64,000 nt of DNA, from assembly GCA_008632985.1 (NCBI GenBank), contig QPGO01000007.1, forward strand, positions 248,001 through 312,000, written 5' to 3'. The notes beneath the pieces were generated by a model. The model did no database searches and was not told the origin of the DNA. It was given only the letters and a program-made list of their open reading frames with translations. This stretch comes from Psammoneis japonica. Its lineage: Eukaryota. The position numbers and the translations under genes were made by a program. Positions 4,459-55,634 of the stretch are shown here, piece after piece (within the stretch, counting starts at the first letter, position 1; the number at the start of each line of letters is the position of its first letter).

Positions 4459-4869
4459 GTTTCCCTGCTATAGTCCCGATGAAACAGGGCTACAAAAACA
4501 CTATGGCGCTCTATAGACATTTGAAATGATTCTCTACCCCGTCCTTTCGTGTCTTGGTTTGCATGTCAAATTGCTCCACATTTCCACAGCGTTCCCTCCT
4601 CTGCCATTTCCTCCAAATTCACCAGCAGCGTTCATCATTTGTTTGCAAGTTGCCGAAGCGAAGATTCCACCAGAGCGAACAGCGCCCAGCCCTTCGGCTT
4701 CCCCTTCCAGAGTTCAGGATGAGGTCCGTCAGTGATGGCACCTCTGCTCTAGCCAGGCCCTCTCCAGCTAGAGAGGCAGCTGCAGCGCGTGCACGAACGA
4801 CAAAACGATGAGGTGGATCACACCGGTGCTTCGGGCGTGACGACGTGCCGCACCTGAGAGAATTTTTAT

Positions 4870-7800
4870 GGGGCGAGAAGCGGTCAATCGCTGCATTTTT
4901 CAGATCACTTGTCCGTTGATTTTCACAGTTGGGGGACCTCTCTGAAAAATTGAAATGTTTCAATCCGATCCACCACGTGAGATTCACACGGCAGAACACA
5001 CCATGACCAACCACCATCAGCCATCAGATGGAGCAAAGCAACCCGTTGAGTGTTGGTGCCGCGTGGCACAGTGGCACACAAGATGACACACAATGCTGCT
5101 GCAAGGAATGGTGAATGGAAAAATGCAGACAAATGCAAAAACACACACCCTTCAAAGACCCCGCACACCAACGTGGGACAATTTTGTGAGAAGCAGAGAG
5201 GGCTCCCTGCTTGAGAAACTTGAGAATGATTTGGTTGCAACATTGTCTTGCTGGAAATGAAGATTGTTTGGCAAGAGAACAGCACAGGCTGAAACTGTGT
5301 CCAGTCGAGCAAACGCTCAATTGATGTGGAGGAACCGCGCGCGGAATCCAAAATGGTTGTTGTGAGTGTTGGCACACCATGGCATCAAAAGAGCCCATCA
5401 TTGCAAGGACAGGAGATTGTCCTGTTGGCTCTTCACGCAGATTCTGTGGAGTGTCATTCATGAGCTGCGGGTGTTTTTCAGCCTTGGCTTTGTGGTTTTG
5501 CATGACCAACAGATCATCTTGATTTGTTTGGAAATGTGCTGCAGTTTCTGCTGGGACATTTGGTCAATGGAAGTTGCCATTCATCTCTGGTGCTTTTTGG
5601 TCTCCTGCAACATCCTCTTTTCTGCTGTGAGCTGGCCCATCCAGCCATCTGCAGTAGGGTTCCTGGTCTTTTTGAATGATTCAAGATGTTTGGAAAGGAC
5701 TCTTTGCTCAGACTTGCAACCAATCCCTTCAGCCAGCCGCAATTCCATTTGGACATCAATGGCCGGCATCTTCCTTGCTTTGTGTGGGCCATCCAGCGGG
5801 GCAGCAACAGCTGTTTGATGCTCACATTCAGAGAGAGGAGGTGGCCCATCTGGATCAAATGAAGCGGCAACAGCTGTGGCAATGTCTTTGGGCACGATGT
5901 CATCAGCTGGCCCATCTGTGGCCAAAACAGCAAAGATGTGAACATCATCTACCACCAGATTGTTGTCTGGGGTCTCTTTGGCTGCACACAATTCCACAGC
6001 AACCTCGCTCAGGTCACTCACCACAATGCAAGAATGAAGACTGCCAGAGTGGACAATTCTCCTGCTGCCATTTCCAGGATCATGTCAAGAACATCTGCCA
6101 CAGGACAAGGAATGACACCAAACTTGCCAACCTCCCAGTCACCAAAACTCTGACTCACCGCCAATCCATTTGTTTCACCCATCACCAGATCTAAGTGCAA
6201 AACACGCATCATGCTGCTGCCACAAGGAATGTGGACGTTGCACTCAGCATGATGGCTGCCACATCCATGCCCACTCATCTGGAGGGTGCGGCTTGTCCTC
6301 TTGACTTTGTTGCACAATGATGGTCTTGCCTGTTTTTTGTGTCAAGCAACAATGAACAACATGCTGTCTCTGGAATTGGCGACATTGTTGTCTTGCTGCC
6401 ATTTTGTAGGATGACCGAAGCAGCAAAGCCAACCGCCTCATCTGCTGGCACTCAATTGATTGTTTGGCCAGTTTTTCAAGTTTGGAAGAGTGCAACTTTG
6501 GAAGATTCACAACAGTGTGCTCTGAAACATGTTTGCTGAGAGTGGCATGTCTGACAAAGCAGGTGATTCATTCTCAAGTGCGTCGCCAACCACCGCCTCC
6601 GAAGCAGGGTCGTCATCAGCTTTTGGGCATTCACGAATGCAAAAGGGTGATGCAACGAAAGCTTGACATCCTGATTGTAATGTCCTTCCACCATTTTGCG
6701 CCCAATCACTGATTTTTTCTTTGAGTCCTGGGCTCTGCCTGCTGGGCCCCACACTTGGGCAAAGGACACGCTGACACGTTGTGCAGTTGTTGCTCCCAAT
6801 GTGAACAAAATCTGCTTTAGATGGCACATGCAATGCGGCCAACAAATCAAGACATTCGCTCAAACAACCACAAATGACCACCAGGTCTTTTCTTGAGCAT
6901 GGCAAAAGTTGTCAGTGATGGACATCAGCCAACCCTGGGGCAACCTGAGTGCAGCAAACACAAGTTGCCGCAAGCTTGATGCAACGCGGTGGTTGAGAAT
7001 GTTTTCTTTTTTTGGTGTCGTAAAAAATCCTTTTTGACTTCTTGAAGCTCGCCAACACCCTTGTTGTCATGGCCATGGTGTTTTTTGCCTGTGGCGCTCC
7101 ACAGCCCACTCGCTAAATTTGTGGCTTGGTGTGGATTGAAACACTTCAATTTTTCAGAGAGGTCCCCCAATTAAAAAAATGATGGACAAGTGATCTGAAA
7201 AATGCAGCACCAAAATCTCACACAACAACATGATGCATCATCAACACATCACACAGCTCTCTTTTGAAAGCAGAGCTGTGCACTTTAACTTGCTGCTTCC
7301 TTCTCCCATCTGTGACATCTGCTTCATTTGTGATGGCAAGCAAAGTGCAGCAGACTGTGGGTTGTGGAGAAAATGCACAATTTAGACTTAACGACCTGAG
7401 TGTTCTTTTCTTTGTTGTTGCTGTCAGGTGTTTCATCATTGGCTTCTCTCAGGATGAATTTTGCCCGGCAATTGTGCATTCCCGGCATCAAACATCTCCT
7501 GGAGTTACAACATGTCAAAGGGATCCAGCAGTGTCACAACTGCAGGTTGATTGAATCTGAGTGGGTTTGGTTGCATGTCTTGTTTGGGTGACACAAAACG
7601 GCTTGCAGTTCTCACAAGCTCGTGTTTCCTGTTGTTGCAGTTTGTGGTTTGGGCAAATCAAAGCAACGCTCTCATGGACTCCATTTTTCATTCATTGCAC
7701 CATTGCCACAGGAAGCATCTTTCAGCCAATGGGTCTGAATTGGGTTGGTTTCAATTGTTGTTTGGGCAAAGCAAAAAGGGGCTCCGCGCTCAGCTCTCAT

Positions 7801-8260
7801 GCGCTTGCACTCTCTGCTTTTTGCGGTTCATGGCTTGGATGGCTGCACATCAAAGAATTGTTGCACTCTCATGGGCTCTGTCATCTGTTTGTTGTGCCAT
7901 TGCCACAGGAAGCATCTGTTGGTTCATTCAACCCAAGTTGCTTGGGTTGCATTGGCTGCAGACAATGGCGTTGTTGCGACAGCCCCCATCCGGACAGCGC
8001 AGGTGTCCCGCACTTTCAAGATTCGTCAACGTGCCATGATGGGAAAAGAGGGAGCCACCAATCGCTGGCATGTGCGCATGCTTTGTGCACTGTCACCCAT
8101 CCATTGTGAACCAGGGACAGTCACACTCACACACAATTGAAGTGGTGAAGAACATCATCTTTTTCACCACAAGCGCAGCTGCAAATTGCAGCAGTCAGGA
8201 ATGTCATCATCTTGTTTCACAACAGGGGTGTCACTCGTTTTGATGCTTCATCAAAGAGAC
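4870..8260. mobile_element. TpA-depleted degenerate repeat domain 1 (probable transposon relics)
   Basis: Only about 13 TA dinucleotides counted in about 3.3 kb; many overlapping Cys/His-rich, Tyr-poor ORFs; internal inverted and direct repeats. Confidence 0.65.
4890..7208. repeat. Imperfect inverted repeat pair of about 77 bp (4890-4966 and 7133-7208) enclosing about 2.2 kb; possible TIRs of a DNA transposon relic
   Basis: gctgcatttttcagatcacttgtcc...ttgggggacctctctgaaaaattgaa.tgtttcaatcc matches the reverse complement of 7133-7208. Confidence 0.75.
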
Positions 8261-8784
8261 GATGTATCCTTTCACGTAAAACTCGGCACGAATTCTGACT
8301 CTAGCCCTAGCAGCTAGAGCAGAGCGTCGTTCGTGCCCCTGTGGGCACGAACTCATTCGGCGTTCGTTCGTGCTCACACGCGCACGACTTATCACGCGGG
8401 CTAATCCCGATGCAGCAACAGATGGACGGTACGATATGGTTCAAAAGACCATCTCTTTGATTGTCGCATTTCTTTTTGGCTTTTTGGGGGTTTTGGTAGA
8501 GGATGATTCAGTTGGCAACTTTGCCGTGTTGTTGGTTTGAAAAAGTGGCATGGTAATGACGTCGTCTGGCCAATGCCTGAACGCCAAACTCGCGAGCCGA
8601 GTCGTGATTGACTTTGACAGCCAACAGCCAACAATAATTGTTGGAAAAAGCCGAAACAAGACAAAAACGAGAACAATAACTCTTCTTCTGTGACTTATTG
8701 TGCTGACACGACGTCAGGGCATCGGCGGAGACGATGAGAAGTCCATAAAACAGAATCACGATTGCACAAACATGAATCCGTCAT

Positions 8785-19928: not shown

Positions 19929-21038
19929 CAAGAAAAGACAACAATTGATACCTATAAAATAACTCCATACTGATCGATCTGCGTTGCTTTTATTCTGCTC
20001 GGAGAGCAACACTACACAGGAAGCTGGACGCTCGTGGCCAAAGCCTGTTACGAGGAGTCATGGTCGAAGTCTTGCGGATCTGAATTCATCTATCTGTTGG
20101 CCGCTTTCCATGATTCTTCTCTGCTTATTATCGTGCTTACTACTGCCATAGCTAGGAAGACAAGAAGCGGGATGTAGGTGATCCTCATCGTGGTCTTCAT
20201 GTCTTTGTTTCCGAGCTTCTTCTCCATACTTTTTAATTAGACTAAGGATCCGAATAAATTTATTTCCATGATGTCGCAGACAAGAGAACCCAATAAATAA
20301 ATGGTGGTGACGTGGCTCGAAGAAACTCCTAAATAGGGCAGTATGGTAATCCTTTTGTTTGTAGAATATCATAGAATGTCGTACCTTACAATTCTGTAGA
20401 GCCTTCGTACGTAAAAGCCAACGTTGAATTCCATACGAAAGTCGGCCAGGGCACACCGCGAATTTGTACGCACGCGCACTCGAAAAGGCCAAAAAGAGCT
20501 CCAACCAAGAGGCACTTTCACTCCTTCAGCAGAAAGCTCTCAGCGCGTTGACAGCATCATTGAAAGGCAAGGTGCGTTATTTCAGCACGGAACATGCTTC
20601 ATCGTGCTCTCGATGTATAATCAGTGCAAAACGAATGGCGCAACCGGAAATGCACAGCTTGTCGAATTGGTGATACCGCACTGGCACTTTGCCTCCGGCA
20701 TTGGATTTTCTTCATTTTTGTCTGAAATTTCGTAAAAAGGTCCCATTTCTGACGTTTTGGATTTCTTCTGTTTGTGTTTTTTTTTGTCAATGACGTTGTT
20801 GGCTCGGCAGCAGCGGTGATTTGCGTCTGCGTTTCAAGTTGATTGCGTTGCAGAGACTATCTCGAGAGGTTCCTCCGTGGTTACTGCAAAGGGGAGCTGG
20901 GGCTTTTGGAATAGGGTCAGGGATTGCTTTGGCGAAACCACAGTAGGCAACATACCCGGTAAACGGTACACGCGTTTCTCGCCACAGTGGCGTAGTGCGA
21001 AGGCTGAAATTGCTCGCCGACGAACGCACAGAAAAATC

Positions 21039-22255
21039 ATGGCTTATAATGATGATTCGTCTGCCTCGGGGCACGATGAACCGTGGATTCAGTGGTACGT
21101 TAGGCGTTCATATTATTTGTTTTGCGATGAATTTTTCGCGCTGATCTCACATTTTTCCTCCGCGAATCGAATCGACTTTCCGGAAAGGTTCTGCGGGCTA
21201 AAGGGACACGAGATGTTTTGTGAGGTGGAGCGGTCTTACATTGAAGATGGTTTCAACTTATACGGCCTTCGAGCCTGCGTTCAGAATTTTTCAGACTGTC
21301 TAGACCTTATTCTAGATCGTATCGGACCGGATGATTCCGACGATTCACATTTGACACAAAGTGCTTGTACCCTGTACGGACTGATACACGCAAGATATAT
21401 AATCACAGCTCACGGCTTGGATGCAATGTACAACAAGGTATGTTAAGCTTATGGACGTGTTAAGGCCGTTCTGCGACAATACGAGACCTTAAGTCAACTC
21501 AAACTTCTTCCGTCTCTCTCGCCCGATGTTTCCAGTATGCAGCAAAAGAATTTGGGACTTGTCCTCTTGTGCAATGCGCTGGTCAGCCGGTGTTACCGCT
21601 TGGTCTTAGAGATGAGATGGGCCAAGATACCGTAAAAATTTTCTGTCCAAAATGTCAATGTGTTTATCATCCACCGGCAATTCGGTCTCGTGGAGGCCAT
21701 CATGCTTCAATAGGGTCCGGAGGGAGTGGTGGCGTCGACGGTGCATCGTTTGGAACAACCTTTCCACATTTGTTTCTCATGACATTTAGCAATCTCGTGC
21801 CAGATCCGCTACCAGCTGGTTCAGCTTATGTTCCGCGAGTGTTTGGGTTTCGCGTACACCACAGCGCAAGACAACGACCAAATCCATCTTCTGCTGCACA
21901 GGCACAGCAAGCGTCAGCTAACACTTCGAGACGAGCAGTGGGTAGCTCATCAAGGAATAGGACTTCTTTAGCAGCAGCAGCAGCAGCCTCACCAGCAGCT
22001 CCTCCACAGGATGACTCAAAGGGAACCGAAAACGCAACAAAAGCAAACCTGAAAAGGGAAAGTGCTGCACCGGGGACACAGCAGGGGAGTGCTCATGAAA
22101 ACAATGTTGCAGCGGCAGATGAACGAAAGCCAAACGCAAAAAGAACAAGGCCTGATGGGGAGAGCAGCAACAAGAGCGCCAGCGCACAAGAGAATAGTAA
22201 TGAAAATGGCCTCGAAAACCGATCAAGACGACGAAAGCGACAAAACACAGCATAG
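21039..22255 (+). CDS. CKB: Casein kinase II regulatory beta subunit; introns about 21095-21187 and 21438-21535
   Basis: WIQW/FCGLKGHEMFCEV..YIEDGFNLYGL, LYGLIHARYI, zinc ribbon CP..C and KIFCPKC, DGASFGTTFPHLF, YVPRVFGF. Confidence 0.95.
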
Positions 22256-22440
22256 CAACAACGCATTTCTGGTGGGCTCGCGACGACTACTGTAATTTTT
22301 TAATCCTTTCTGTTAAGTAGTCGCTATCTTTGCTTCTACTTTCCTTTACATAATATCTACCTCTCTATCAATGCTGTGTGCAACTCACCATCTCTAAAAA
22401 AGAGTGGCGAGTAATGCAACGAAACAACAACACCACAAAT

Positions 22441-23944
22441 TTAGCCAACCTCCCTGAGGCTGGTTTCAATGATTCCAAGGCATTCATCCATTTCTTGTTC
22501 CGTAATGGTGAGAGGAGGAGCAAAGCGAATAATGTTGCCGTGCGTAGGTTTGGCCAAGAGCCCGTGCTCTGCCATTTTGAGGCAAACCTCCCAAGCCTTG
22601 CCCGTATCGCCATAGCTACTCTTTGGCTGATTAATCACAATGGCATTCAATAGACCGCGTCCACGAACAGATTCAATTGATGTCTCACCAATGAGGCTCT
22701 GCAGACCGTCCCGGAGTTGCTGTCCACGAACTTTGGAGTTCTCGGCGAGTCCCTCTTCACGGAGCACCTCCAAGGCTGCGGTTGCAACCTTGCAGGCAAG
22801 TGGGTTACCACCATAGGTAGAGCCGTGCTCACCGGGTTTGAGTGTTAGCATCACTTCATCCGATGCCAACACTGCAGACACTGGGAGAACTCCGCCAGAA
22901 AGAGCCTAAAAAAGTAGGTAAGCGTGTTCGATGAGAAAAGTGAAAACACACAGTCAAAGAAACAATACACAGTACGCCGCCTTTACTCTCACCTTTCCAA
23001 GAACCACGATATCTGGTTTGCATTCATCATGATCCACGGCCAACTCGTACCCCGTACGGCATAGACCAGTCTGAACCTCATCGGCAATAAGGAGCACATT
23101 GTGCTTGGTACAGAGCTCCTTAGCCTCGGCCATGTACCCGTCATCTGGAACCACCACACCAGCCTCACCCTGAATGGGTTCCACCATGAAGGCGGCAATG
23201 TTTTCTGCATCTTTCGATAGTTCGGATTCGAGTGATCCCAAATCATTAAAGGGCACATGAGAAAAGCCAGGCATGTAAGGTCCAAAGTCCCGAAAGGCGG
23301 TTGGATCGTTGGACGATGACACGGCGGCCAGCGTGCGTCCCCAAAAGTTTTGATTGGCAAACAAGACGCGGGCCTTGTTGCTGGGAATTCCCTTGACCTG
23401 ATAACCCCAGCGACGAGCCAACTTGACCGCCGTCTCGCCGCCCTCGACACCCGTGTTCATGGGCAAGACACGATCGTATCCAAAGTAATTGGTAATGAAT
23501 TCCGTGTAAGGACCGAGGCTGTCGTTGAAAAAGGCACGAGAAGTCAAGGTCAACTTGGGCGCTTGTGTTGTTAACGCTTCGATGATTTTAGGGTGGCAGT
23601 GTCCCTGATTAACAGCGGAATACGCCGACAAGAAATCGTAGTAGCAACGGCCATCGACGTCAAAGACCCGAGTGCCTGTTGAAAAAGCAAGCGAATTAGG
23701 TAGCATCATCTGAGACGAATCAGCTCTGCATTTTTCGATAGGAAATTCACATAATACAATACTTACCCTCTCCTCGGGCAAGAACAACAGGAAGCGGGTG
23801 ATAATTGTGTGCTCCGTACTTATCCTCTAGATTCATGCATTTTGCGGCAGCCTCTGAGGGAACAGGCTCGGATACGGCTGCGGTCGAGAGCCATCGAGCG
23901 GAAACCGCACGACGCCCCAGAAAATGGCGTGTAGCAGTCAACAT
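22441..23944 (-). CDS. OAT: Ornithine aminotransferase (mitochondrial presequence); introns about 22906-22992 and 23676-23766
   Basis: [72 protein letters not shown]. Confidence 0.96.
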
Positions 23945-26204
23945 GTCGTCGATTTAGAGCGAAACTAACAAGTTATCTCAACTTGATGCCAGCCAGACAA
24001 GAACGTTGATATGGGAAAGGATCGTGAAAATGCGATGCGAAGCAAGAAGCAAGCAAAAGAAAAATGTGAGGAGAGATGATGACACGCGTGCGGTCGCGGA
24101 TGACCGGATCTTAGCGGATAACTTACAGACGCACAATTGCCTGATTTTTCATAGAATCCATGAAAAAGTAAAATTCCGAGAAAACGTAATTTTCGGGTGG
24201 ACTGCCATGGCTTTGTTTTCACTGCATCATTTGCCATGGTGGATTTCCATTTTTTTGGCCCCATCTCTTCTGATGAGAGTTTTGGCGACAGCACGACTTG
24301 CCAGAATGTTGCTTTGCTGTCGATCACTTGTGGATTGATGAAGTTGTTCTTTGGCGCAGTGCAACTCAGTCATTTGTTCAGAAGCTTTGTTGGGGAACTG
24401 CCTTTGATGTTTTTTGTCACAAAGACTGATGTGTTGGCCAAGGCTGTGGGCTGGTTGGACACTCTGCTTCATTCCAGACATGGTTGTTGCTTGGTGGGAT
24501 GTCACAGTTGATTTTGTTGTCATGTTTGCAAACTGCAAACCAAGTCTTGGCCATTTCTTCAGTCCTTCTCTTTGTTCTGCTGTTCTGGTCGCCTTTTCTC
24601 TCAGCTGCTCTTTTTTTTTCTTGACAACCATTGCACTGGTCATCAGGAGGGGAGGGTGACACACATCTGAGATGGGGAGCACACTCCCTTGTGTTGGACA
24701 GACTGGCATGGACAGCATGGAGAGATCCGAGACGATCCTCTCTCCCTTTGCTCACTTTCTTTCTTATCCAGTGCGCTCATTGTCGCACCCATCCTGGACA
24801 CCGCCCCAGCGACGAGCCAACTTGACCGCCGTCTCGCCGCCCTCGACACCCGTGTTCATGGGCAAGACACGATCGCATCCAAAGCAATTGGAAATGAATT
24901 CCGTGCAAGGACCGAGGCTGTCGTTGAAAAAGGCACGAGAAGTCAAGGTCAACTTGGGCGCTTGTGTTGTTGACGCTTCGATGATTTTAGGGTGGCAGTG
25001 TCCCTGATTAACAGCGGAGTGCGCCGACAAGAAATCGCAGCAGCAATGGCCATCGACGTCAAAGACCCGAGTGCCTGTTGAAAAAGCAAGCGAATTGGGT
25101 GGCATCATCTGAGACGAATCAGCTCTGCATTTTTCGATCGGAAATTCACACAACGCAACACTCACCCTCTCCTCGGGCAAGAACAACAGGAAGCGGGTGA
25201 CAATTGTGTGCTCCGTACTTGTCCTCTAGATTCATGCATTTTGCGGCAGCCTCTGAGGGAACAGGCTCGGATGCGGCTGCGGTCGAGAGCCATCGAGCGG
25301 AAACCGCACGATGCCCCAGAAAATGGCATGTGGCAGTCAACATGTCGTCGATTTAGAGCGAAACTAACAAGTTGTCTCAACTTGATGCCTGCCAAACAAG
25401 AACGTTGACATGGGAAAGGATCGTGAAAATGCGATGCGAAGCAAGAAGCAAGCAAAAGAAAAATGTGAGGAGAGATGATGACACGCGTGCGGTCGCGGAT
25501 GACCGGATCTCAGCGGATGACTTACAGACGCACAATTGCCTGATTTTTCATAGAATCCATGAAAAAGTAAAATTCCAAGAAAACGTAATTTTCGGGTGGA
25601 CTGCCATGGCTTTGTTTTCACTGCATCATTTGCCATGGTGGATTTCCATTTTTTTGGCCCCATCTCTTCTGATGAGAGTTTTGGTGACAGCACAACTTGC
25701 CAGAATGTTGCTTTGCTGTCGATCACTTGTGGATTGATGAAGTTGTTCTTTGGCGCAGTGCAACTCAGTCATTTGTTCAGAAGCTTTGTTGGGGAACTGC
25801 CTTTGATGTTTTTTGTCACAAAGACTGATGTGTTGGCCAAGGCTGTGGGCTGGTTGGACACTCTGCTTCATTCCAGACATGTGGTTGTTGCTTGGTGGGA
25901 TGTCACAGTTGATTTTGTTGTCATGTTTGCAAACTGCAAACCAAGTCTTGGCCATTTCTTCAGTCCTTCTCTTTGTTCTGCTGTTCTGGTCGCCTTTTCT
26001 CTCAGCTGTTCTTTTTTTTTCTTGACAACCATTGCACTGGTCATCAGGAGGGGAGGGTGACACACATCTGAGATGGGGAGCACACTCCCTTGTGTTGGAC
26101 AGACTGGCATGGACAGCATGGAGAGATCCGAGACGATCCTCTCTCCCTTTGCTCACTTTCTTTCTCATCCAGTGCGCTCATTGTCGCACCCATCCTGGAC
26201 ACCG
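23405..26204. repeat. Head-to-tail tandem duplication: unit 1 23405-24803, unit 2 24804-26204
   Basis: Direct alignment with offset 1399-1401; about 35 substitutions and one 2 bp indel. Confidence 0.97.
24804..25343 (-). pseudogene. OAT: Truncated duplicate of the OAT 5' half, hypermutated at TpA (Tyr to Cys/His)
   Basis: [11 protein letters not shown] becomes HCCCDFLSAHS; NYH becomes [16 protein letters not shown] becomes PCTEFISNCFGCD; homology ends at 24804. Confidence 0.95.
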
Positions 26205-26905
26205 TTGGATCATCCCGATGTCACCAGCCCACAATGATTGAATGTGCTCATTCTTCCCTTTGACCCATCTCATGAGCAGAGCACAGTGTGTCATTTTTTC
26301 CCTTCTTGTTGTGTCCTCGTGTGGCCACAAATGCAAACCACAAGAGCTCCAGAGCAGAGACGCATCCAGGTCCAGGTGGGGGACCTCGCACTGCTGAACT
26401 GTGACATCAACAGTTTTTTGAATTGTGTTGCATGTTGCACACGCACATTTCTGCATGATTTTGGCAACATTTTGTGTCATCTTGCAGTGCAGTTGTTGGG
26501 CGACACATTCAACAACTTTTGACATTTTTTCTTCCACGCCATTCTCAAATGTCTCAATGATGGTGTGTTGGGCAGTCGGACCATCCAAAACTTTGAGCAG
26601 GCACAGAGGCACATGTGCCACAAACTTGGTTGTTTGTTTCATGTCAAAGATGAATGTGTCCATTGAGCAGAGTGCGAACTGCAGAGCTTGCGCGTGGAAT
26701 TCTGCGGGGCAAATGTCACAAAAAGTCCCACCCAGAGGGCTGGAGCACGTCAGCAAAGGCCAAGACAAAAATGGAGCCCCATGTGAGCAACATGAACATG
26801 TGTGGTTTGATGGTGAAGTTCATTTTTCCCTTGCTCCACCACAAGGGGGCGCTTTGTGTTGATGTGTGGATGCATCCATGGCGGTTGTGTCCCCCGGCAG
26901 TGGCG

Positions 26906-26958
26906 TGGCTGGCTGGCTCGCTGGCTGGCTGGCTCGCTGGCTGGCTGGCTTGCTGGCT
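26906..26958 (+). repeat. Imperfect (GGCT)n tetranucleotide microsatellite
   Basis: ggctggctggctcgctggctggctggctcgctggctggctggcttgctggct. Confidence 0.9.
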
Positions 26959-28290
26959 AGATGATGATGGGATGAAAAGCACACCCACCTGAACCAAGTC
27001 AAAGGGGAACAACAGGAATCATTCAAAAATGTCACGTGGGTCACAGTTGATGTTTCACATGTGGAAAAACACAAAATCGTGCAGAAATGCACACAATGTC
27101 ATGTGAGAGAATGATCAGAGCTAACGACTTTTCGGGAACTGAATTGAAATGCCATCTGTTCAATGGTGTTGGCCTTCACCATGTGAATCAACAAAACACC
27201 GTCGATCAGATGGCATTTCAATTGATTTCCCGAGAAGTTGACATTTGCACACGGACAGATGGACAGACTGACAATGATTGTTCTTAGTGCTCTCCTGCAC
27301 AATTTCTACGTGATGACTCTCAGGACCCGAGTGATTCCTGTTGTTGCCACAATCACTTGTTTTTTGTTCCCCTCCATCCCCTGAGACCTTTCAGACGTTC
27401 GTTCCCGCCAAATTGCCCTCATTTCCCGGGTGTTCCCCAAAAGGGCAAGGCAATTTCCCCTTGCCCTGGCCATTTCCTTGGGGAACCCCCAATCCGGCAA
27501 AACCAAACCAAGGTGCTGTGCATGGCAGTGCAACAAACAATTCACCCCTTGGTTTCAGGCACGTGTCTTTGTGACAGCCAAAATGTGAAACTTCCATGCT
27601 TGACGTTCGTTTGGGGCTAAATGTTTTTTGTTCTTGTTGCGGGAATGGGGGGTGGGGACACATGCTGTGTTGGCAACCTGCGGCGTGTCTTCACAACATG
27701 ATCACCTGATGGTTTGACACTTGGCGGATGTGATGCATTGAGCAAATCAAGGAATTGGTGTCAGGCTGTGCATTGGAATCCATGGACACAAAGGGGGTGA
27801 CAAAATGGAGCATTTCCTGCATGTTCTTATTTTCAACACACATGGACAGTCCAGCGGCAACATGCTGCTCACATCAATGAAGTCCGCATGGATTGCACAG
27901 GTTACACAAAGATGTGAACAAATGAGAGTGACACCAGAACATGCGGGAAAACTTTCATGAAGAGATCGAAGGTTTACGGCAACTCGCGGAGGAGCATCTG
28001 ATTTTCTACTGTGCATGTGATGCTGCACTCACGCTGATGGCTTGCAGTGGGGCAAGTGCCAAAGTCATTATTCGTAGATTGTCTTTGTCCATATAACATG
28101 TAGATGTTAGTCTTCGTGCCAGCTTGGGACTTGCGCCTCAGATCATCTATTCCCGGTCCGTTGGAGAGCTTGTATCCGTGCATGGAAAACAAATCCGAAT
28201 CGAAGTGCGCGTTAAAAAAACAATAGGTTACCTATTACGAGATGTCTGAAACTTGACAATGAAGACTGATTCTTGGTCGCACAGATCGGC

Positions 28291-30625
28291 TCAACCACGT
28301 TTTGAGGGCGAACGTGTCGCCAAGGCCATGTCTGTTAAATCCAGTTCGCTTTTGTGAAGGATTTGAAAGTTCTCCTTGGTCAGGAATGCTTTCAGTCCTT
28401 CGGCTAGCACAATGATCACTTCCAAGTTTCTGGGGATTGAGACGTCCGCAAAATTCGTCCCTTCTCCGAAACGCCGCGCAATTACTTTGTCGGCGTCATC
28501 AAAGACTTGATCGCCGGCCGGTAACTCTTCCTCGGACACGGTCAGCGCAATCATCACAAATACAACCCGAGTATCTCTGCAGCATGAAAAGCATGATTTT
28601 TGCAGCGCTTTCGCCATCATGGCCGAAGTGACCCTTTGCTTACCGTTCTTGAACTGCATTTCAACAACGACCTGTTTGTCAGTTTTCAAAATTAGGTCTG
28701 CTGAAGATGACATAGACCGAGGCACGTAGAACACCCCTGTCTCCAGCGCCTTGATGACCGTGGGAAGATCCAGCGGATGGACGTCTGCGAAACCAGCAGA
28801 AGCTGGGTTGTCAAAAAATCTGCCCAATGCATCAATGGATTTACCCGGTGTGGGAGAGCGTGTTATCTTGGGAAAACTCTTGAAGGCTTTGAACACGAAA
28901 TTTTCTTCCTCAATAGTAGATCCTTTCAAGAAAGGTAGCCGCTCCCCAAGAGATGGCGGGCCACAGTGGAGCTCTTCGCTCACACGCAAACGTAGAATGT
29001 GCTGCACCATCACTTCCAGGACATCGCCGGAGTTCTGCGCTTGTGCCTGCACGGGGCACGCGGTTTGAAGCGAGCCCCAAAAAGGAAGACGGGGCTCGGG
29101 AACGTGTTTTGCAATCTCGCCCAAGACAACTGGAGGGACTACCAGAACATATCTATCCGCGCCGCATCGTTGCACGTAAAGCGGAAAGGTGCTGCAGATT
29201 TCCAATGTCATGACTGAACCTTCAAACCCCCAGAATGTTCCATCGATCTCTTGTGCCAGGGAAATCGGAAGTCGGAGAGCAGCAATTCGAATCAACTCAA
29301 GAAAGAACTTCCGCATGCTGTGCTGGACCCTAAGGTGTGGCTTCATCTCATGCTCTGCCTCTTGAAGAAGGTGTTGGGTAAAAGGGGCTGAATCACGCAG
29401 GAAAGTCGCCCTTCTCGACTCGAAGTCGACCCCATCCAGTGACATCCGATCTGTAAAAAAGTTTACGCCGTGATCAACAAATCGTGGCACTCCGCTGGTG
29501 ATTGCATGAAAGTGATCAATAAAATCATCTTCGACATGATCCACGAATTCCTCGAGAATTTCCCTCACGTTTTCCTTTTTCAAGGGGTCTAGTAGAATAC
29601 ATTCCGCATTCTCGGGAGAAAGCAAATCTCGGTGCTGCGAAAGACATCCTTTGCCGAGAAGGAAAAGGGTTGGAGATGGACCTGTGCAAAACACTTAAGA
29701 ATCCGTCTTGTTGTGGATTCCACTTATCTCTGTCCACATGCGATAGAGGAGAGTGATTCGGTCACCCTCTGAACGAAAAGGCCCCAACGCACTAACTTCA
29801 TCAAGATGAATGAAGAAATGCTTCCCAGTTTGATTCTCAAAATGCCGGACAATTTTCCAACTTGGTAGCATATGTATGTTTCCAGGTAGCTTGACTTGCG
29901 AGGAATCTGAATTTCTGGATAGGGATGACATTTTTGTGGCCAATGCAATGCGTATGGACTCGACCAACGGGAAGGAAATATTGAGATCAAAACGAAAGTC
30001 AACGAACAAACGCTCAAGCCCGAGGAGCCACTGCACAGGTGCAACGCGATATTTTCTTTCCAGTATTTCTCTCAGTTGATCCAAAGATCTTAACCGAGTC
30101 AAAAAATTGAGGGCAAACGTCGACTTTCCAGAGCCAAACATCTGCGCAGATGTGGCTAGAGTAAGACGGTGTTGCGACTCTACGCCCGCCGTTCGCGATC
30201 TTCCTTTGCGTTTAATGTGATTTGAGAGTAGGATATGAGCAAGTTGCTCGCACTCTCCTTTCGCGGTTGACAAATGGAAGAGGCGAAGCCGACTCTTCTG
30301 AAACAGTTGCCCGCAAAGACAGCCCCTTTTCGAATTCGGGCAGAAGAAATTCCATCCCATCGGATGGCACCTTCGTCTGTGATGGAGGCGGCTTTCCAAC
30401 AACATCAACAGAGTAAATGATTCCTTTGTATCCAATTGAAAAATCTGGAAAAATGCTAGCGAACAGATTCGTTGAGAAAGGATCACCGTCGTCGTCGAAT
30501 ACAAATAAAGAATCAGGAATGAGATCGGCATTATACGTCTCGTTGAGAACAACTTCTTCGTTCCCTTTCTTTAGTTTGACCTGTACACGACTTGGATCTC
30601 TCCAAATCAATTTTGCAGTTGCCAT
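28291..30625 (-). pseudogene. Crinkler/CR-like protein: short header, P-loop NTPase and restriction-endonuclease-like domain; frameshift near 30265 and in-frame TAA at 29695-29697
   Basis: Walker A variant SAQMFGSGKST, Walker B FFIHLDEV, TSGVPRF, C-terminal SSSADLILK...VEMQFKNG (PD-(D/E)xK-like). Confidence 0.65.
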
Positions 30626-38562: not shown

Positions 38563-40487
38563 TTAGATCACTTTTTCCGGTTTTTCGGAATCAACGTCAC
38601 TCTCGGTATCTTCAACTTCGTATTCCATAGACACGTCCCATCGTGAACTTGGCGCACCACTTCCAACGTATTTGACGAAACGCATTGTACCCGGGTCTCG
38701 GTACACCAGCGAGAGCGTGTTGTTGCTCGCCGACACGCTCAGCAGCTCTGTATCGTCTTCGTCGTCATATTCGGCTGCAGCGGCATTGTCCTTGGAGTCG
38801 TTGCCGTCGCCGTCCTCTTCATCGTCCGCTGCAATGTAGCACTCAAAGCCACCGTAATCTCCCAATTCCCACATTGCATCCGCATCGTTGCCAATCAAAT
38901 CTCCGGTTTCTTCGTCGCGGAGACATTGCTTGCCATTTCCTGCAGCGAAGCACAGCGTTGCATCCAAGACGGACTTGGTTGTTAATATGCCATAATGGGC
39001 GACCGTGTAGTCCATTCCTGGACGAAATCGACGCACTCTACCGCGATATCCCAAGGGAGTACCAAGGCTTGTCAGTAGACCAAGATACCGACCAAAGGCT
39101 GCCGATTCAAAGACGGATGCTTTCAAAGAACCGAGCAATGATCCTGCGGACTCTTCTCCCTCGTCGGATTGCTCCCCAACATACTCCAAAAAGCGCTGCT
39201 TGTGTGCCGGTCCGACTGCCTTCCAGTTGGTTTCGTCCATTCCCGTTTGATAATCCAACACGGGAGGGTTGCCCCGTTTGTCGAGTCCACACGCCTCATC
39301 GGCCTTGGTCGTGGCGTTTTGAATCTTGCTCATGGCGGATGGTTTGAGAAAATCTCGCAATTGTACACTGGAATCCTCCTCGAATCGTTGTCGTATTTCG
39401 TCCATGGACTTTCCGTGAGGTAGGTGCCATTGATGAATTGTGCAAGATGGGCGCGGTCCGACTCGGACAGCGTGTCGGCTGCTGTTTCTGACGTTTTCTC
39501 TGCCGGCGTAAAGGATCCCTCGGTATCTTCGCCTTTTGCGGTTGACTTTAATCGGCTCAACGTGGCATCTTGTATCTTTTCTGGAGCGTCCTTTGCATGA
39601 TACCAACCTGCGGTAATAAAGAGGAGAGGGTAAGTCAAGACGTTGTCAAGCTTCATAACGAGAATCCACAAATATTTCTCCACAAGTAGCCTCACCTTGA
39701 ATGGACAATCGCGGACGATCGCCAAGAACTTCTTGTACAGCATGAAAGGAAACACCCGGTTTGACTTCAAAATACGCCATGGTGTTGAACGTTGGAGGAA
39801 TGGATTTGCTAGGAAACACATTTGGCGTCCCATGTTCATGGTCGTACAGTTCCAAACACCCTCCTTCCGAAACATCCCATTCGGGACTTGGATCCGTGAG
39901 ATAGATAATGTACGACACTTTGCGCGTTCCAATGACGTCGTCGTGACAAAGCAAATGACAACCCGGTGCATGACAATTGGCGGCACAATCCACCTCATCC
40001 GTGAGTGTGTTGGGTTCCAAATTGTTGATTTGCTCGACAAGAGCACGAAACTCGGACGAATACAGAGCACCCTTGAGCTCGAGGAGGCGTGGCATGATTT
40101 GTTGCGAGTTTTCCTTTGATAGGTTACCCAAATCGATGCTTTGATAAACACGAAACAAGTCGCTTTCTTTGAATTTCACCTTGGAGTGATTTTTGATTTC
40201 ATCCAAGACTTGTTCTGTGGGAAAGATGTGGATTTGAGTCACATGTTTTAAAAGATAAACAGAGCAGTACACGAGATCGCCATTGCCTCACCTAAAAATC
40301 CATCCACAAAGAGACCTTCAATTCGACCGTGAGGATACGGTTTCGCCGTCAGATATGCATTTCGCAATTCTTGTCGCGATTTTGCCACACGTGGATCAAT
40401 GACGTTCATCATCCCGCTGTTAGAATCCGTATCTGATTCATGGTTTGTTTTTAGCTTTTTTGCTTCTGGTGAATTATGGCCATCCAT
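38563..40487 (-). CDS. OGFOD1/Tpa1/Ofd1-like prolyl hydroxylase (2OG-Fe(II) oxygenase); two introns; frameshift near 39420
   Basis: AKPYPHG, KESDLF, LLCHDDVIGTRKVSYIIYLTD, SFHAVQEV, RLSIQ/GWYH; C-terminal domain with GPAHKQRF, RRFRPGMDYT, LSLVYRD..MRFVKYV. Confidence 0.88.
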
Positions 40488-41043
40488 CGTTTCAAATCAA
40501 AAACACACAGTTTCGTCGTCGTCGTTGCCAATAAGAACAACAATCGTTGTATGAAATCTGTTGTGATTGAAATCTTTGTTGTGTTCGTGTTCGTGTTGAC
40601 TCTTTTTTTTGTTGTTGGAGCTGTGATCTTTCGTCTGTCCGTCGAAGAAAGATCTTTTTGGATTTTCTCCAAAATTTTTCGAAAGTTTGACCTTTGACTT
40701 TCGATCTTTTCTTTCTTGTCATCATTGCTCGCAACACCACAAAACAGCAAAACAACACGGAAAAATAAAATAGTCTCTAGTCTAAAAAGTGATACATCAA
40801 GTAGAAAGGCGATCCAGAGCCGCGAGATACCGGTAGCGAGAAACAGTCAGTCATCAAGGACGAAAGTGGCAAGGGGACAGTTCCACGATGTCATCCCAAG
40901 GTAGAACCACAATCTTGTCGCAAACTCGCAGAGAGAGAGAGTAGAACTCGCATTCATGGAGTGTACATGGATGCAGACATAATGAAGGAAGATGTCGAGG
41001 ATTAGCGGTTGTGAATCATGAACATGAACAAGCCGCAAAGTCA

Positions 41044-41806: not shown

Positions 41807-42689
41807 GGTGCTCTTACGGAAACTACAGCACTTCTAATCAGTGAAACACCGCACTGATTGTGGATCTGATCTCTGACGCCTGTGGCTTTTTCTCGGCAGA
41901 TATAATAATTGGGTTGCGTTATCGTCCCGCTCTATAGCACCAATACGATGTTGAACTTGAAGCAGAACGACGAAGTGATGTTGTGATGAGCTATTGCGAT
42001 GCGTTGTTGCCACGATTGAAACCTTGCGCCAAAGCGCGCGAACAGTGGCGGGCGTGTCGAAAGCATGTATGAGGCTACGACTAGCATAAACGTACCTGTT
42101 ATACCGGTCAGACATTTTGTATTGGATTTTATGTACCCCTTTATTTAACGATAACGGTTATTGCCAAAACAAATAGCAGGTTTTACATGTGTATCATATA
42201 CAAATGTCTCACAAAAGTCCATACCTTTCAACTATTTAAATGTTTTTGTAGATGTTACACATTCAACCGTCGATACTCCGTTTGTCAACTCCGTCTTTGA
42301 ATAATACTTCATATATGCTCGTATGTTTGATTAAATTGCGTGGCGGGCGTGGGCATGACCTTCATTTGAATTCGTACTTAGAAAGAGTCATTCTATGTAT
42401 TGCCTCAGCATTTTCTTCGTTAAGTGCGTAGAACAGTACAAATCTTACGCAAAAAGTCATATGCAGTCATTCAACATTCTTGTATATTCGTCATTAATAA
42501 ATCATATCAATGTTTTTTATATGTCAATGATTATATCATATTGCATTTTATGCTAGTCGAAGCCCCATACCGGTATGCGCATGCACGCCATGCAATGCAC
42601 GCAGGAAGAGCGCAACGCATGCACGTCTTCGGCCTGCCCTCAGCCCGATCGTCAATCGTCACGAGTGTGCTGGACTTTGCGTTCGTTAC

Positions 42690-44700
42690 GAACGTGAAAT
42701 CCAAGACTCTGCTTGCATCCATCAAGCAGGGCAAGGCAGCACATGTGCAGCATGGGTTCAAGGTCACAGAGACACATGTGGGCAGGCAGTTTGAGCCTCT
42801 TTCTTGGGTGGGGTGCCAGCCATCGGAAGCACGCACTCTTGACCTGGGTGCTGCCTCACACCTGAAAGGGGCAATTTGGGCCTGGCCAAATCGAACAATG
42901 CAGGTCCATCAATGCAACCATTTTTTCATTCTTCCTGAACATCCTTTCCCATCCATGGTTGAATCTGTTGGGTGGTGTCAATTTGCAACTTGTTGCTGAG
43001 TGCGAAGCTCAACATCACGCCCGGGAGCCACAGTCCGAGGTTTTTGATGTTGCCATCATCTTTGTCCATCTGCAGCTGATTGCAGTTGTCTTCTGGTGTT
43101 CCTTCTTTGCTGCGCATGCCCTCCCAGAGTGTCTTTTGACCAAACTTCATCACACTTGTCTGCACACCCTTGCTCTCAATCTCTGCTCATGACTGCACTT
43201 TCCCAACTCTTGGAGCCTCTCCAGCCCTTGCTTGTTCCAACTGTGATTGCTTTTTGCTTGCTTTCCTTTCCCCATGCTGTGCTTTGCATTGAGAGCAAGC
43301 CCTTTCAATCTGTTCTCCTTCAGCTCTTCCATTGTTTTGCCACACATGTGGGCCCACTTGCTCCCGTTGTTCTCCAACACAGGCAGACACAATGCCTTGT
43401 TGCCCGCAGATGCCAACTTGTTCAAGCAATGTCTCAATTTGAGCCAATGATTCCATGTTGTTTTCCCAACCACAGTTGGCAGGAAGTGGCACAGGTGAAA
43501 TGGCTTTGGGCCTTTGTGTTGCTCTCCTCCTCTCCAGCATTTCCTCCAGAGATGGTGTCTTGTTGTTTTGTCGAAATGGCAGCCAGTCCATCCAAAGGAT
43601 TGTCAACATCAACATTGGAAACATGCAGCAAAGAAAAAACAACAGCCAGGAGAGACTTTGCTTTTTTTCTTTGTGTTTGTGTTGTCTGGGTTGTTGTTGT
43701 CAAACAAAAGTTTTCTGGGAGAAAACCAAGGAGCATCTTTGACTTGCTTGACACAGTCAGTCAGAAAGTCTGACAAATGCAGAAAGCACAATGGGATTGT
43801 CCGCTGGGTGCACATGACTGATGAGCACACCTGTGAAAGTGCAGCTGCAGTTCTTGCACATGCCCAGTGACTGATGATTGGTGCCAGTGGAGGAAGAAGA
43901 AGTGGTGGTGGTGGCTGCAACAGACGAGTCTTTGTCGTGTGTGCTCAAAACATGCAACAACAAATCAGCAGGCATTTTGCCTGCTTTCTTTGACAGCACC
44001 TAAAAATCCAATCAATCAATGACAGGGTGGATGTTGTTTGCAATGCAAAGGCTGTCATTGTGATTGTTTTGCTTGGGAGCAACTTGTGGGCTGCCCCTCT
44101 CACCTTGAGAGTGCTGATGAGCCAGACGTGAACGAACGGCGCTGCACACACAAGGAAACAAGAGGCCACGCTGGTGCAATGTTGAGCCTTGGCATCAGCG
44201 CTTGGACCAGTGGCTTGTCCAAACAGCAAAAGCTCAGTGCAAGGAGCTCCACAAAGAGTTGGAGCTGGTGACAGCCACAAGTGCGCACACAATGCCGACA
44301 CACAGATGTTGTGGACAGGAAGGTTCATGGAGAGCCAGGGGCACAAGAAAGCAAAGAACAACATTTTGTTTCAGGGCAAGAAGCTCAATGTGAGGAGATC
44401 CACAGAGTTGGAGCTGGTGTTGGTCATGTGCATCACCGGCTGCGCTGCAGCACACACAGCTCTGTTGTGGATGCAGGAAGGCTCGCGGAGAGTCGCCAGG
44501 GGCACAAGAAAGCAAAGAAATGGAGAAGAATGGTTGGCAGATAATTTCAAGCTCCAAGTGCTGGCAGACCACTCTGCCAAGGTGCTTCAAGGCCTGCTGT
44601 TCAGCCACATGGTTTGGGCCTCTAGAGAGAGAGTAGAAACCAGATCATGGGCAGGTGTGGCTCTGTGGAAAATGCACGAGGGATCTTTTTCGCCATTGCA
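42690..44700. mobile_element. TpA-depleted degenerate repeat domain 3
   Basis: TA nearly absent over about 2 kb; minus-strand relic ORF with LPVLENN...W...SWNKQGLERLQEL; diverged internal tandem duplication. Confidence 0.55.
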
Positions 44701-45258
44701 AGATTCCACATTCCCTTTGTTCGCAAAGATTTTCGGTCACATTATCGCACACTTATTCACACCAACACGGAATCGTAGATTCCCTGCCACCGCCTCGGCT
44801 TGGCTACAACCCCGATGACATGGCACAGTGCAAGCTACCGAATGGACGCAACAATCAATACACGAATATAACTAATGTATAACACATATACGAGCACATA
44901 TATTCGTGTGATGCTGCTGAGATAGTAGCTAGAAAATGGGGGAACAAATCTACGGATCTAAATCCGTCCATTTTGTTCCCCAGCACTGTGTGAACAGAGG
45001 GCGGTGTGGGTGGGAATTTTCAGCGTTGTTGGCCCATATCGGGACATCGCAACTGATCCCATTGCTACCGATCGTCTGCCAAGAACAATGAGGGGAACAT
45101 GGGAGGCCTCTCGTCGTTCGTCGTCGTCCGTCGTCTGTCCATCCACCTTCGACTGCGCGCTACTATCGCGCGGTGACTCCTCCAAGAGCGCGACCGCCCA
45201 CAAGGTATCCTCTCCTTGTGCTTGGCCTACCGTCTTGGCCTCGAAACAAAAAACAACA

Positions 45259-45897: not shown

Positions 45898-47070
45898 ACG
45901 GACCTTTTCGTCACACGAGCTTTGGCGGGGAGCCGAGGACCTTGCAGGAGCATTTGGCGAAAGCTCAAGGGAATAAGAAAGATCAAGAAAGTAGTTGAGC
46001 ACTTGCATCGAATCGTGAGCTTTGAAATCCACTCAGAGAGTGCGAAACAGTAACTGGAGCGGTGCCGTTTGGTCGACTCTGCCTCCGGACGATTTGCCCG
46101 TAGATATTGTACTATTTTGTATCCTACTGTAAGTATCTTCAGATGGTAGAGCTGACCGGCTAGAAAAAACGAATGGGACGAGCAATAGAAAAGGAAAAGG
46201 AAGAACTATATCTTCAGAGGCTATTCCCCTTGCACTCTAGATAGAGATAGCATTTCATTCACTTTTCACTCGGTACTTTTCTCCGCTTCGTTCAAAGTGG
46301 TAAAACTGAAATTCTCATAGATCGTTGGCGTCTTCCGCGACGCAGTATTGGCAGACAAATAGATCTGTCTTGCTTGCGTGAGCAAGACAGGAACACCCCA
46401 ACAACACGAGTGTGATTCTTTATACTGTTTGGTCTACAGCAGTCGTCGTGGAGTCTACCAAATCATGCCAACCCTCTTTGTAATCGAGCAAAACAACACG
46501 GGAAATCTGATAGTCTCTAGTCTTTTAAAGAGTGATACAGCAAGTAGGAAGGTGATCCAGCCTCGAGGTAGGGAGAAACAGCTGATGCACAGCAAGAACG
46601 AAAGCACAAGAGAGGACAGTTCCAACACGTTACCCCAAAGAAGAGCCACAATCTTGTCGCAAACTCGCAACACTTCACTGTGTGTGGATCTGATCTCTGG
46701 CGCGTTTTTGCTTTTCTCTGCAGATTCAATAATCGGGTTGTTTTGTCGTCCCGCTCTCTAGCTAGAGAGCACCGATGCGAATGTTGAAAGACGATGTGAT
46801 TTGATGATTTGCGGATGCCACGATCAAAATGAGGTGCGAAAACCGCAGAGCGAGGGAACTGCACCAAAAGCGTGCGAAAAAGTGGCGCATAAGGAAGCCA
46901 AAAAAACCAAAAAAAAGGCGCGAAACGTCTGTCTGCGTGCCCGATGGATATGATACGATACGCAATGTTGGATGGAGTTGGACGTTTGGATACGATGATG
47001 ATGTGTTGATGCTATTGTTGCCGCTCCGTTTGTTCAACACTCGAGTGCCAACGCCTTGGTATTAATTAGA

Positions 47071-55298: not shown

Positions 55299-55634
55299 GG
55301 TCAGTTCGCCCAATTGGGGCAACTTAACACGTTCTACGCTTCTGGTTGGGGACGCCCAAACCAGGGCAACCCTGTCAACAGCTCTGATGCCGTCAGTGCT
55401 CCTCATCAACTGTGCTCCACGCTCTTGATGTCAAGTGCTGCGACTGACTCCGTCAGCTGAGTGGCTGGTTCTGCCAGAAGGTTTGTTGTTGATTTTGCAC
55501 GTGCACCATCTCAGGTCCTGCTCCACCCCGTGGCCCTCCTGAGACCCAAGAGAGTTCTCCGAGCTTGCACTCTTTGATTGAGAACGTCCCAGACGATTGG
55601 TCCGACTCGACAGCTTCAAGCGCGCTGTCGGACA

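Follow-up and report, generated by a model that had tools for sequence, protein, structure and literature searches.

Why should two copies of the same DNA, lying end to end in one chromosome, differ predominantly at TpA dinucleotides, and always with the loss of TpA from the same copy? This question is raised by a 64,000-bp stretch of the genome of the pennate diatom Psammoneis japonica (GenBank assembly GCA_008632985.1, contig QPGO01000007.1, positions 248,001 to 312,000; hereafter, the window), in which part of the gene for ornithine aminotransferase (OAT) has been duplicated in tandem. The best explanation, which we consider probable, is a TpA-specific hypermutation of silent repeat islands in this diatom. 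The intact OAT gene (22313-24046, minus strand) is recognized by its Pfam domain Aminotran_3 (E 7e-71 and 3e-37), by diatom homologues, to which its product is 87-89% identical, and by a spliced contig; the coding exons lie at approximately 22441-22904, 22992-23674, and 23766-23944, and are separated by introns at 22905-22991 and 23675-23765. BLASTN self-comparison and MAFFT alignment revealed a single direct tandem repeat composed of unit A (23405-24803) and unit B (24804-26204). The junction between the units is clean (spacer 0, microhomology 0), and both ends of the repeat were also detected by a repeat finder. A preliminary description of the locus as a tandem duplication of OAT is therefore correct as to the tandem arrangement but not as to the gene as a whole, because each unit contains only the 5′ 549 bp of OAT (exon 1, intron 1, and part of exon 2) along with approximately 850 bp of upstream DNA.

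One unit of the duplication is hypermutated at TpA

The two units are 97.36% identical and are separated by 35 substitutions and one 2-nt insertion (TG, 25880-25881) in B. Read from A to B, 23 of the substitutions are transitions at bases of TpA steps (13 T>C and 10 A>G on the plus strand), including one TA>CG double hit at 23755/23756; two more are transversions at TpA (23493 T>A and 23740 A>C), six convert CpG into TpG or CpA, and the remaining four are 23620 A>G, 23991 A>T, 23996 G>A, and 24608 C>T. Unit A has 34 TpA sites, 24 of which are destroyed in B, with none created, and the counts of CA and TG in B each rise by 14. The counts given in the preliminary description were reproduced by this alignment and by a census of sequence contexts.

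The excess at TpA persists when the substitutions are tabulated by context, with transitions at 23 of 68 TpA bases, whereas of the 656 A/T bases elsewhere a single one has undergone a transition (Fisher odds ratio 335, p = 1.1e-24). Among CpG bases, 6 of 140 are changed, compared with 2 of the 535 G or C bases elsewhere (odds ratio 12, p = 0.0014). Expressed as loss per site, the values for B are 1.22 for TpA, 0.09 for CpG (6 of 70 sites), and 0.0034 for other sites, that is, TpA has been lost approximately 13 times faster than CpG, and the decay of CpG explains only 6 of the 35 changes. The part of the OAT fragment in B outside TpA has changed at about 0.3%. Changes of A>G or T>C make up 24 of the 35 substitutions, or 24 of 29 once the six CpG changes are set aside, and all but one of these 24 A:T>G:C transitions fall on TpA. 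The change in B is hypermutation rather than a mild bias. Its products are strand-symmetric, TpG and CpA both being formed, and given the 13:10 ratio, A>G on one strand is indistinguishable from T>C on the other.

Direction and substrate of the change

Wherever one unit has TA and the other CA or TG, TA is found in A (24 of 24) and never in B (0 of 24). For polarization, both copies were aligned with nine diatom OATs. The copies differ at 10 conserved columns, and A carries the conserved residue at all of them; in B, Tyr is replaced at seven codons (six by Cys and one by His), Leu and Thr have each become Ser, and Arg/Lys has become His, the last through a CpG change. Because the conserved residues are consistently on the side of A, this unit preserves the ancestral state, and B is, on the evidence of the aligned homologues, the derived copy. 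The direction that had been read from the conserved OAT protein is thus confirmed, and the reported conversion of the peptide YYDFLSAYS into CCDFLSAHS is indeed present in the translation of B.

The OAT pseudogene fragment of B (24804-25343, minus strand; Aminotran_3 E 5e-24) consists of exon 1, part of exon 2, and a retained intron 1, in which all seven TpA sites are struck; the 3′ part of the gene is absent. Retention of the intron, together with the tandem arrangement, implies that B is no retrocopy and that the mutations were made on DNA, in place. The other parts of the unit were struck at 8 of 10 TpA sites in exon 2, 4 of 6 in exon 1, 2 of 4 in the leader, and 2 of 6 in the unique upstream DNA. 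The left half of B was struck at 17 of 20 sites versus 6 of 13 in the right half (p = 0.026). Ten TpA sites survive in B, at 24988, 25009, 25216, 25227, 25354, 25365, 25523, 25551, 25568, and 25586. The four promoter-proximal TpA sites nearest to the repeat are intact in B (25523-25586) as they are in A (24124-24187), and of the other 30 sites in B, 24 are struck. This patch may be protected, perhaps as a nucleosome-free or factor-bound region, a property that B may have retained. Further upstream, the unit consists of high-copy repeat DNA (24188-24803 in A), which contains a single TpA in 616 bp. Over these approximately 600 bp, A and B nowhere differ by a CA/TG doublet, indicating that the TpA depletion there is older than the duplication. 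As a result of the duplication, B is enclosed by two high-copy repeat stretches.

TpA-poor blocks and the Ty1/copia element

The finding goes beyond the duplicate, as the signature characterizes the repeat islands of this genome. Profiled at a scale of 1 kb, the window contains stretches with observed-to-expected ratios (O/E) of 0.00-0.14 for TpA, 0.2-0.8 for CpG, and 1.4-1.8 for CA+TG, and segmentation yields four blocks, at positions 4551-8301, 24151-28001, 42601-44701, and 54451-63951. Pooled (18,384 bp), the blocks have O/E values of 0.07 for TpA, 0.58 for CpG, 1.62 for CA, and 1.50 for TG, versus 0.56, 0.99, 1.15, and 1.19, respectively, in the rest of the window (44,833 bp). Judged from the positions of TpA, the block edges are sharp to approximately 100 bp. 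At the edge of the block 42601-44701 (TpA O/E 0.04, CpG O/E 0.31), for example, TpA occurs about every 10 bp until position 42574 and afterwards only at 42687, 44001, and 44542. The block 4551-8301 is likewise poor in TpA and CpG (O/E 0.07 and 0.44, respectively) and sharply delimited. Next to the duplicated OAT fragment, the high-copy repeat block at 25587-28001, which comprises the upstream part of B and the DNA beyond it, has a TpA O/E of 0.07 and a CpG O/E of 0.41; the block 54451-63951 (TpA O/E 0.08-0.11) contains a Ty1/copia element with flanking repeat DNA.

The repetitive nature of the block adjoining OAT is evident from X1, a DNA sequencing run that we used in the form of exact word-based contigs. 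The summed X1 word depth over 24204-27674 ranges from 369 to 51,911 versus about 60 on the flanks, and falls back to 58.8 at 27675, identifying the block there as a high-copy repeat; over the upstream part of A, the summed depth is 369-1795. The maximum of 51,911 is reached at 26340-26606, which belongs to a repeat family that has roughly several hundred copies and matches no Pfam family. Variants among the genomic copies of the repeat, as seen in X1 contigs, fall in pyrimidine-purine (YpR) steps in 11 of 12 cases, including two CA<->TG doublets. A (TGGC)n microsatellite of 14 copies (26901-26958) lies inside the repeat block, and reads appear to be cut there.

Long overlapping open reading frames (ORFs) of 100-780 aa occur in all six frames of the TpA-poor blocks; their abundance follows from the impossibility of TAA and TAG stop codons without TpA and does not reflect genes. 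None of the 38 long ORFs of the three non-copia blocks matched a Pfam family at the cut-off, and the lone listed match, to Nodulin-like in the block 4551-8301, reached 16 bits against a cut-off of 24.7. The 57 ORFs outside the blocks represent ordinary housekeeping genes in Pfam searches, which detected no deaminase, DNA methyltransferase, or TET/JBP among them.

The Ty1/copia element, a second and independent case within the window, lies on the plus strand and is bounded by a pair of 472-bp long terminal repeats (LTRs), the 5′ LTR at 54835-55298 being 90.5% identical to the 3′ LTR at 62128-62599. Between them lies a degenerate gag-pol (55960-61428) in three ORFs with Tyr contents of 0.1-0.3%, in which the Pfam domains zf-CCHC, gag_pre-integrs, RVT_2, and, weakly, rve are recognizable. 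The two LTRs of one element are identical at insertion. In this pair, 33 of the 38 substitutions are in YpR steps, comprising 10 CA<->TG doublets, 8 CG<->TG/CA differences, and 5 TA<->TG/CA differences; a CA<->TG doublet between LTRs marks an ancestral TA or CG that was resolved differently in each of them. The pol ORF (0.1% Tyr) was aligned with 12 homologues of normal Tyr content, picked from the 150 best matches. At eight columns of conserved Tyr, the element has four Cys, three His, and one Tyr, with the other residue classes mostly kept, and a second pol alignment (A3) gave four Cys, five His, and one Tyr at such columns. Since a Tyr codon cannot be written without TA, every Tyr would become Cys or His under this process.

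Read support

The X1 contigs rule out a gross assembly or base-calling artefact. They agree with the assembly without a single difference over 21000-23434 and with one difference over 27423-29000, and the first flank contig stops at 23434, 30 bases inside the repeat, as expected of a branch at the boundary of the duplication. In one 707-nt contig, 10 of the variable sites show the sequence of B and the remainder that of A, a mosaic from which we conclude that the reads contain both versions. The word depth of this contig is 85.4, and bins over the duplicated unique part range from 85 to 102 versus about 60 on the flanks, which indicates two copies rather than two alleles. In a second run, X2, one contig spans 22313-24046, skips both introns (GT..AG, minus strand), and does not differ from A at any position; we take X2 to be RNA-like because its contigs are spliced. 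No X2 contig maps to B, although we do not use this as evidence that B is silent.

Sequence preference and proposed mechanism

The process prefers RTAY over YTAR (where R is a purine and Y a pyrimidine). Among the TpA sites that survive in the blocks, 38 of 79 are of the YTAR type versus 299 of 1770 outside (p = 5e-10), and 4 of 79 are of the RTAY type versus 525 of 1770 outside (p = 1e-7). Within B, YTAR sites were struck in 3 of 8 cases versus 21 of 26 for the other TpA sites (p = 0.03). Such an effect of the flanking bases points to an enzyme with a sequence preference. Unit A, 1.4 kb from B and represented in the spliced RNA-like contigs, was spared although its promoter lies within about 20 bp of the TpA-free repeat. 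Since A is unhit, at intronic and synonymous sites as well, the trigger is not a symmetric sensing of the duplicated pair; what seems to matter is whether a sequence belongs to a silent repeat island. We infer that such islands are targeted, on the presumption that B and the blocks are silent.

In the mechanism that we propose, a DNA-level process would turn TpA into CpA or TpG (A:T>G:C, on both strands of the palindromic step) and would act in place on transcriptionally silent repeat islands, alongside a decay of CpG to TpG or CpA, presumably driven by 5-methylcytosine, at a pace slower by roughly an order of magnitude. The tandem duplication would have placed a promoter-plus-5′ fragment of OAT between high-copy repeats, where the fragment would then have lost its TpA sites. 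Targeting would rely on silent chromatin or on repeat-derived guidance, perhaps by read-through transcripts, and not on the pairing of duplicates. As for the chemistry, adenine in 5′-TA-3′ might be converted into hypoxanthine by a deaminase of the TadA/ADAT2 type, the chemistry that we tentatively favour and the one proposed for Bigelowiella natans. The outcome would be the irreversible inactivation of mobile DNA. The strand-symmetric, TpA-specific A:T>G:C mutator of silent or repeat DNA that was postulated in the preliminary description is supported by the outgroups, the four blocks, the LTR pair, and the replacement of Tyr by Cys and His in the copia element.

Several observations weigh against this interpretation. 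The outgroups polarize only 10 of the 35 substitutions, the others being polarized by analogy, and both targeting and chemistry are arrived at indirectly. Simple spreading from the right-hand repeat, or from both sides, predicts that the four TpA sites of B closest to that repeat would be struck, and they are intact. Strand-coordinated runs, as expected of a processive single-strand deaminase, are not significant (11 runs in 23 hits, P = 0.36; P = 0.16 without the double hit), and at mixed RTAR/YTAY sites, counted by eye, the struck strand fits a rule of a 3′ pyrimidine in 8 cases versus 5. The expression of A rests on one run that is RNA-like solely by virtue of its spliced contigs. The reads of X1 probably derive from the assembled sample itself, so that their support is not independent; confirmation of the duplicate from raw reads, which the preliminary description had envisaged, has hence been obtained for the presence of both states but not from an independent source. 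Finally, none of 80 related copia loci from metagenomes (L001-L080), retrieved with search patterns that may favour intact copies, is depleted in TpA (O/E 0.36-0.82), and the named diatom homologues (from Cylindrotheca, Fragilaria, and Epithemia) have normal Tyr content. The latter two results show that the process is not general in diatoms.

Alternative explanations

The chemical side of the proposal has one main rival, oxidized thymine. With the same targeting, an oxygenase of the TET/JBP type could produce 5-hydroxymethyluracil (5hmU) or 5-formyluracil (5fU) at TpA, and mispairing with G would then yield T>C. The data fit A>G on one strand and T>C on its complement equally well, 5fU causes A:T>G:C transitions, and dinoflagellate DNA contains 5hmU preferentially at TpA and TpC; however, T>C in the TpC context is not seen, given the single transition among 656 A/T bases outside TpA, and the sole 2OG-Fe(II) oxygenase of the window is of the ordinary Ofd1 type. 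We therefore regard thymine chemistry as unlikely. The same figure of 1 in 656 bears on explanations that dispense with targeting altogether, namely error-prone synthesis of the Pol eta type (WA>WG, where W is A or T) or selection against TpA/UpA. The single AAT>AGT change fits WA, and a mild deficit of TpA exists even outside the blocks (O/E 0.56), but ApA/TpT is essentially untouched, and selection cannot explain the destruction of conserved Tyr codons or the fact that intron, LTR, and pseudogene are struck alike. Pol eta, one of the candidates originally put forward, is accordingly disfavoured, and we find the absence of targeting scarcely credible. Decay of a modified adenine was another of those candidates; for methylated adenine at the usual eukaryotic ApT motif, it is not indicated either, as the 656 bases include the ApT bases that do not overlap TpA. 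Two further candidates were dropped. GC-biased gene conversion has no TpA specificity, and TA is present in A, the sole homologue of B. A third OAT paralogue, already depleted, could have converted B, but this would merely move the question, and the read depth gives no indication of such a copy.

Other rivals concern the trigger or the timing rather than the chemistry. Under a homology-sensing mechanism like fungal repeat-induced point mutation (RIP), duplicated DNA would be detected as such and mutated, with chemistry opposite to that in fungi. B is a duplicate, every other affected block is repeated DNA, and diatoms possess DNMT4 enzymes of unknown function that are related to fungal RID (PMC9998398). 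Yet RIP mutates both partners, whereas A shows no detectable hit (0 of 24), the upstream 600 bp of the unit were TpA-free before the duplication, and the hypermutated viral region described in Bigelowiella natans is single-copy (bioRxiv 10.64898/2026.01.13.699255); we hence consider such sensing quite unlikely. The earlier characterization of the locus as a repeat-associated reverse of RIP holds insofar as repeat islands are affected and the polarity is opposite, but it overstates the likeness, there being no sensing of the pair. Editing before integration, in which the RNA or cDNA of retroelements would be hyperedited by an ADAR-like A>I activity with a 5′ U preference and copies would be born mutated, could account for the sharp edges of the blocks, one of which is a retrotransposon, and the 5′ U preference of ADAR is mentioned in the B. 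natans preprint (bioRxiv 10.64898/2026.01.13.699255). It is nevertheless very improbable, given that B keeps its intron and promoter region and sits in tandem, and that the LTRs of a single insertion differ by independent YpR changes. ADARs are also, to our knowledge, a metazoan family. There remains the possibility of an artefact, whether through base-calling or polishing errors at modified bases in repeats or through a misassembled pair of alleles. Repeats are difficult to assemble, and the single DNA run is probably that of the source sample, but X1 contigs at a depth of about 60 match the TpA-free stretches 24121-24262, 24240-24699, 26175-26408, 26435-26645, and 27312-27436 without differences, variants of the B state are present at a depth that fits two copies, and the same signature is found in a Tyr-free copia polyprotein from a separate metagenome contig (see below). 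An artefact is thus highly improbable, and TpA-specific hypermutation of silent repeat islands remains our preferred explanation.

Distribution and significance

Although the process is not general in diatoms, its signature is present in at least one other public contig. Among the 150 copia library homologues, six have a Tyr content below 1.2%, and one of these, at 0.05%, is P0135, a copia polyprotein of 2061 aa without internal stops encoded on an 8.4-kb metagenome contig. At 21 columns of conserved Tyr, P0135 has 11 Cys, 7 His, 2 Phe, 1 Trp, and no Tyr. The lowest Tyr content among a further 112 copia homologues is 0.89%. In nine of the 80 metagenome copia loci, a CpG O/E of 0.17-0.37 is combined with a normal TpA O/E of 0.41-0.59, indicating that the decay of CpG and the erasure of TpA are separable processes.

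A 2026 preprint on a chlorarachniophyte was the first account of targeted A:T>G:C hypermutation in nuclear DNA. The diatom case argues that it is no oddity of one species, and adds a second major marine algal lineage, with ordinary retrotransposons as targets. The OAT duplicate represents an unusually clean natural experiment, with a known ancestor, a change at the DNA level, and a neighbouring copy that was spared, and it argues against a pairing-based trigger and for targeting based on silencing. The patchy distribution offers a comparative route to the enzyme, and should a natural deaminase act on adenine in chromosomal DNA, it would be of interest to base editing. There are also consequences for annotation. 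TpA-poor DNA yields long stop-poor ORFs, devoid of TAA and TAG, which gene callers based on ORFs would over-predict, the resulting Tyr-free "proteins" pollute protein databases, and the process weakens homology-based annotation of transposable elements. As a speculation that we rather doubt at present, diatoms and chlorarachniophytes might share a DNA adenine deaminase derived from ADAT2/TadA, guided by chromatin or small RNA, independent of copy number, and with a preference for RTAY. Acting in place on silenced DNA, it would disable transposons, integrated viruses, and stray gene fragments for good by erasing every TpA and, with it, every Tyr codon. Such a system would amount to a functional equivalent of fungal RIP, of reversed polarity and with a wide though patchy occurrence among SAR (stramenopile, alveolate, and rhizarian) algae, and to a natural A-to-G editor of double-stranded DNA.

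Other features of the window

The OAT gene is adjoined by a gene for casein kinase II beta (20820-22252, plus strand), and a spliced X2 contig confirms the two introns of that gene (21094-21186 and 21436-21533). The 2OG-Fe(II) oxygenase gene mentioned above (38566-40287, minus strand) encodes an Ofd1/Tpa1-type protein with the Pfam domains Ofd1_CTDD and 2OG-FeII_Oxy_4, an ordinary family that is distinct from TET/JBP. A 190-bp direct repeat (40746-40930 and 46487-46669; 78% identical) lies in DNA of ordinary TpA content.

Comparison with known systems

The products of the process in P. japonica overlap with those of 5-methylcytosine decay, which also yields CA and TG and is itself visible here as the conversion of CpG (in B and in the blocks, where the CpG O/E is 0.3-0.8), but such decay cannot remove TpA. 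Fungal RIP is similar in being a dinucleotide-specific transition hypermutation that ruins both repeats and mobile DNA, with a strong skew in dinucleotide composition as its trace. However, RIP is a premeiotic process, dependent on RID or DIM-2, that changes C:G into T:A, mainly CpA into TpA, and thereby creates TpA, whereas here TpA is only destroyed; furthermore, RIP strikes both duplicates, whereas here B alone was struck. Mechanistically, the process is not RIP in reverse, as only one member of the pair is affected. ADAR and ADAT2-ADAT3 share with it the A>G outcome next to a 5′ U or T: A34 edited by ADAT2/3 always follows U33, and the site of TadA is UACG. In their known roles these are RNA enzymes, whereas no RNA intermediate is possible for B. 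DNA editing by ADAT2 of Trypanosoma and of amphioxus is, however, cited in the B. natans preprint (bioRxiv 10.64898/2026.01.13.699255).

Full-text literature searches found no description of TpA hypermutation in diatoms. A review of diatom DNA methyltransferases, in its available text, reports no RIP-like mutation (PMC9998398), and the corresponding text of a mutation-accumulation study of Phaeodactylum tricornutum describes an ordinary GC>AT bias, TpA being unmentioned (PMC6604790). The sole description of the signature that these searches returned is that in the chlorarachniophyte B. natans (Mettrop et al., bioRxiv 10.64898/2026.01.13.699255, April 2026), so that the statement in the preliminary description that no account of such a process was known is outdated. 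According to that preprint, two integrated viral regions account for 231 of the 302 new nuclear mutations in mutation-accumulation lines; almost all of these are A>G/T>C, and every such change is on TpA. The rate is approximately 1000 times the background, and the process is seen in only some of the lines. The giant-virus region that is hypermutated is silent and occurs in a single copy, reverse-transcriptase and DDE domains are enriched in clusters of the genome that are poor in TpA and rich in CpA+TpG, and the authors of the preprint propose adenine deamination of the TadA/ADAT2 type (bioRxiv 10.64898/2026.01.13.699255).

In both organisms, A>G/T>C changes occur almost exclusively, on TpA, with TpG or CpA as products depending on the strand; they are confined to particular silent or foreign stretches (silence being presumed in P. 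japonica), at rates orders of magnitude above the background; and copy number is not the trigger. The long-term footprint also matches, in the form of clustered TpA-poor, CA/TG-rich blocks with reverse-transcriptase domains, one of the blocks here being a Ty1/copia element. The differences concern the host, a stramenopile here and a rhizarian there; the targets, here islands of LTR retrotransposon and repeat DNA together with a fragment of a host gene trapped in one of them, as opposed to giant-virus and virophage inserts; and the extent of depletion, which here is near saturation (TpA O/E 0.07) versus a Rho of 0.45 in the viral region. The evidence here is comparative, whereas in B. natans it consists of de novo mutations. 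The decay of CpG that accompanies the process in P. japonica and the preference for RTAY over YTAR are both absent from the main text sections of the preprint, the available text of which mentions neither CpG nor diatoms nor stramenopiles (bioRxiv 10.64898/2026.01.13.699255). The process is thus not unprecedented: it was first reported in 2026, and P. japonica extends it to a second lineage and to targets of a new class.

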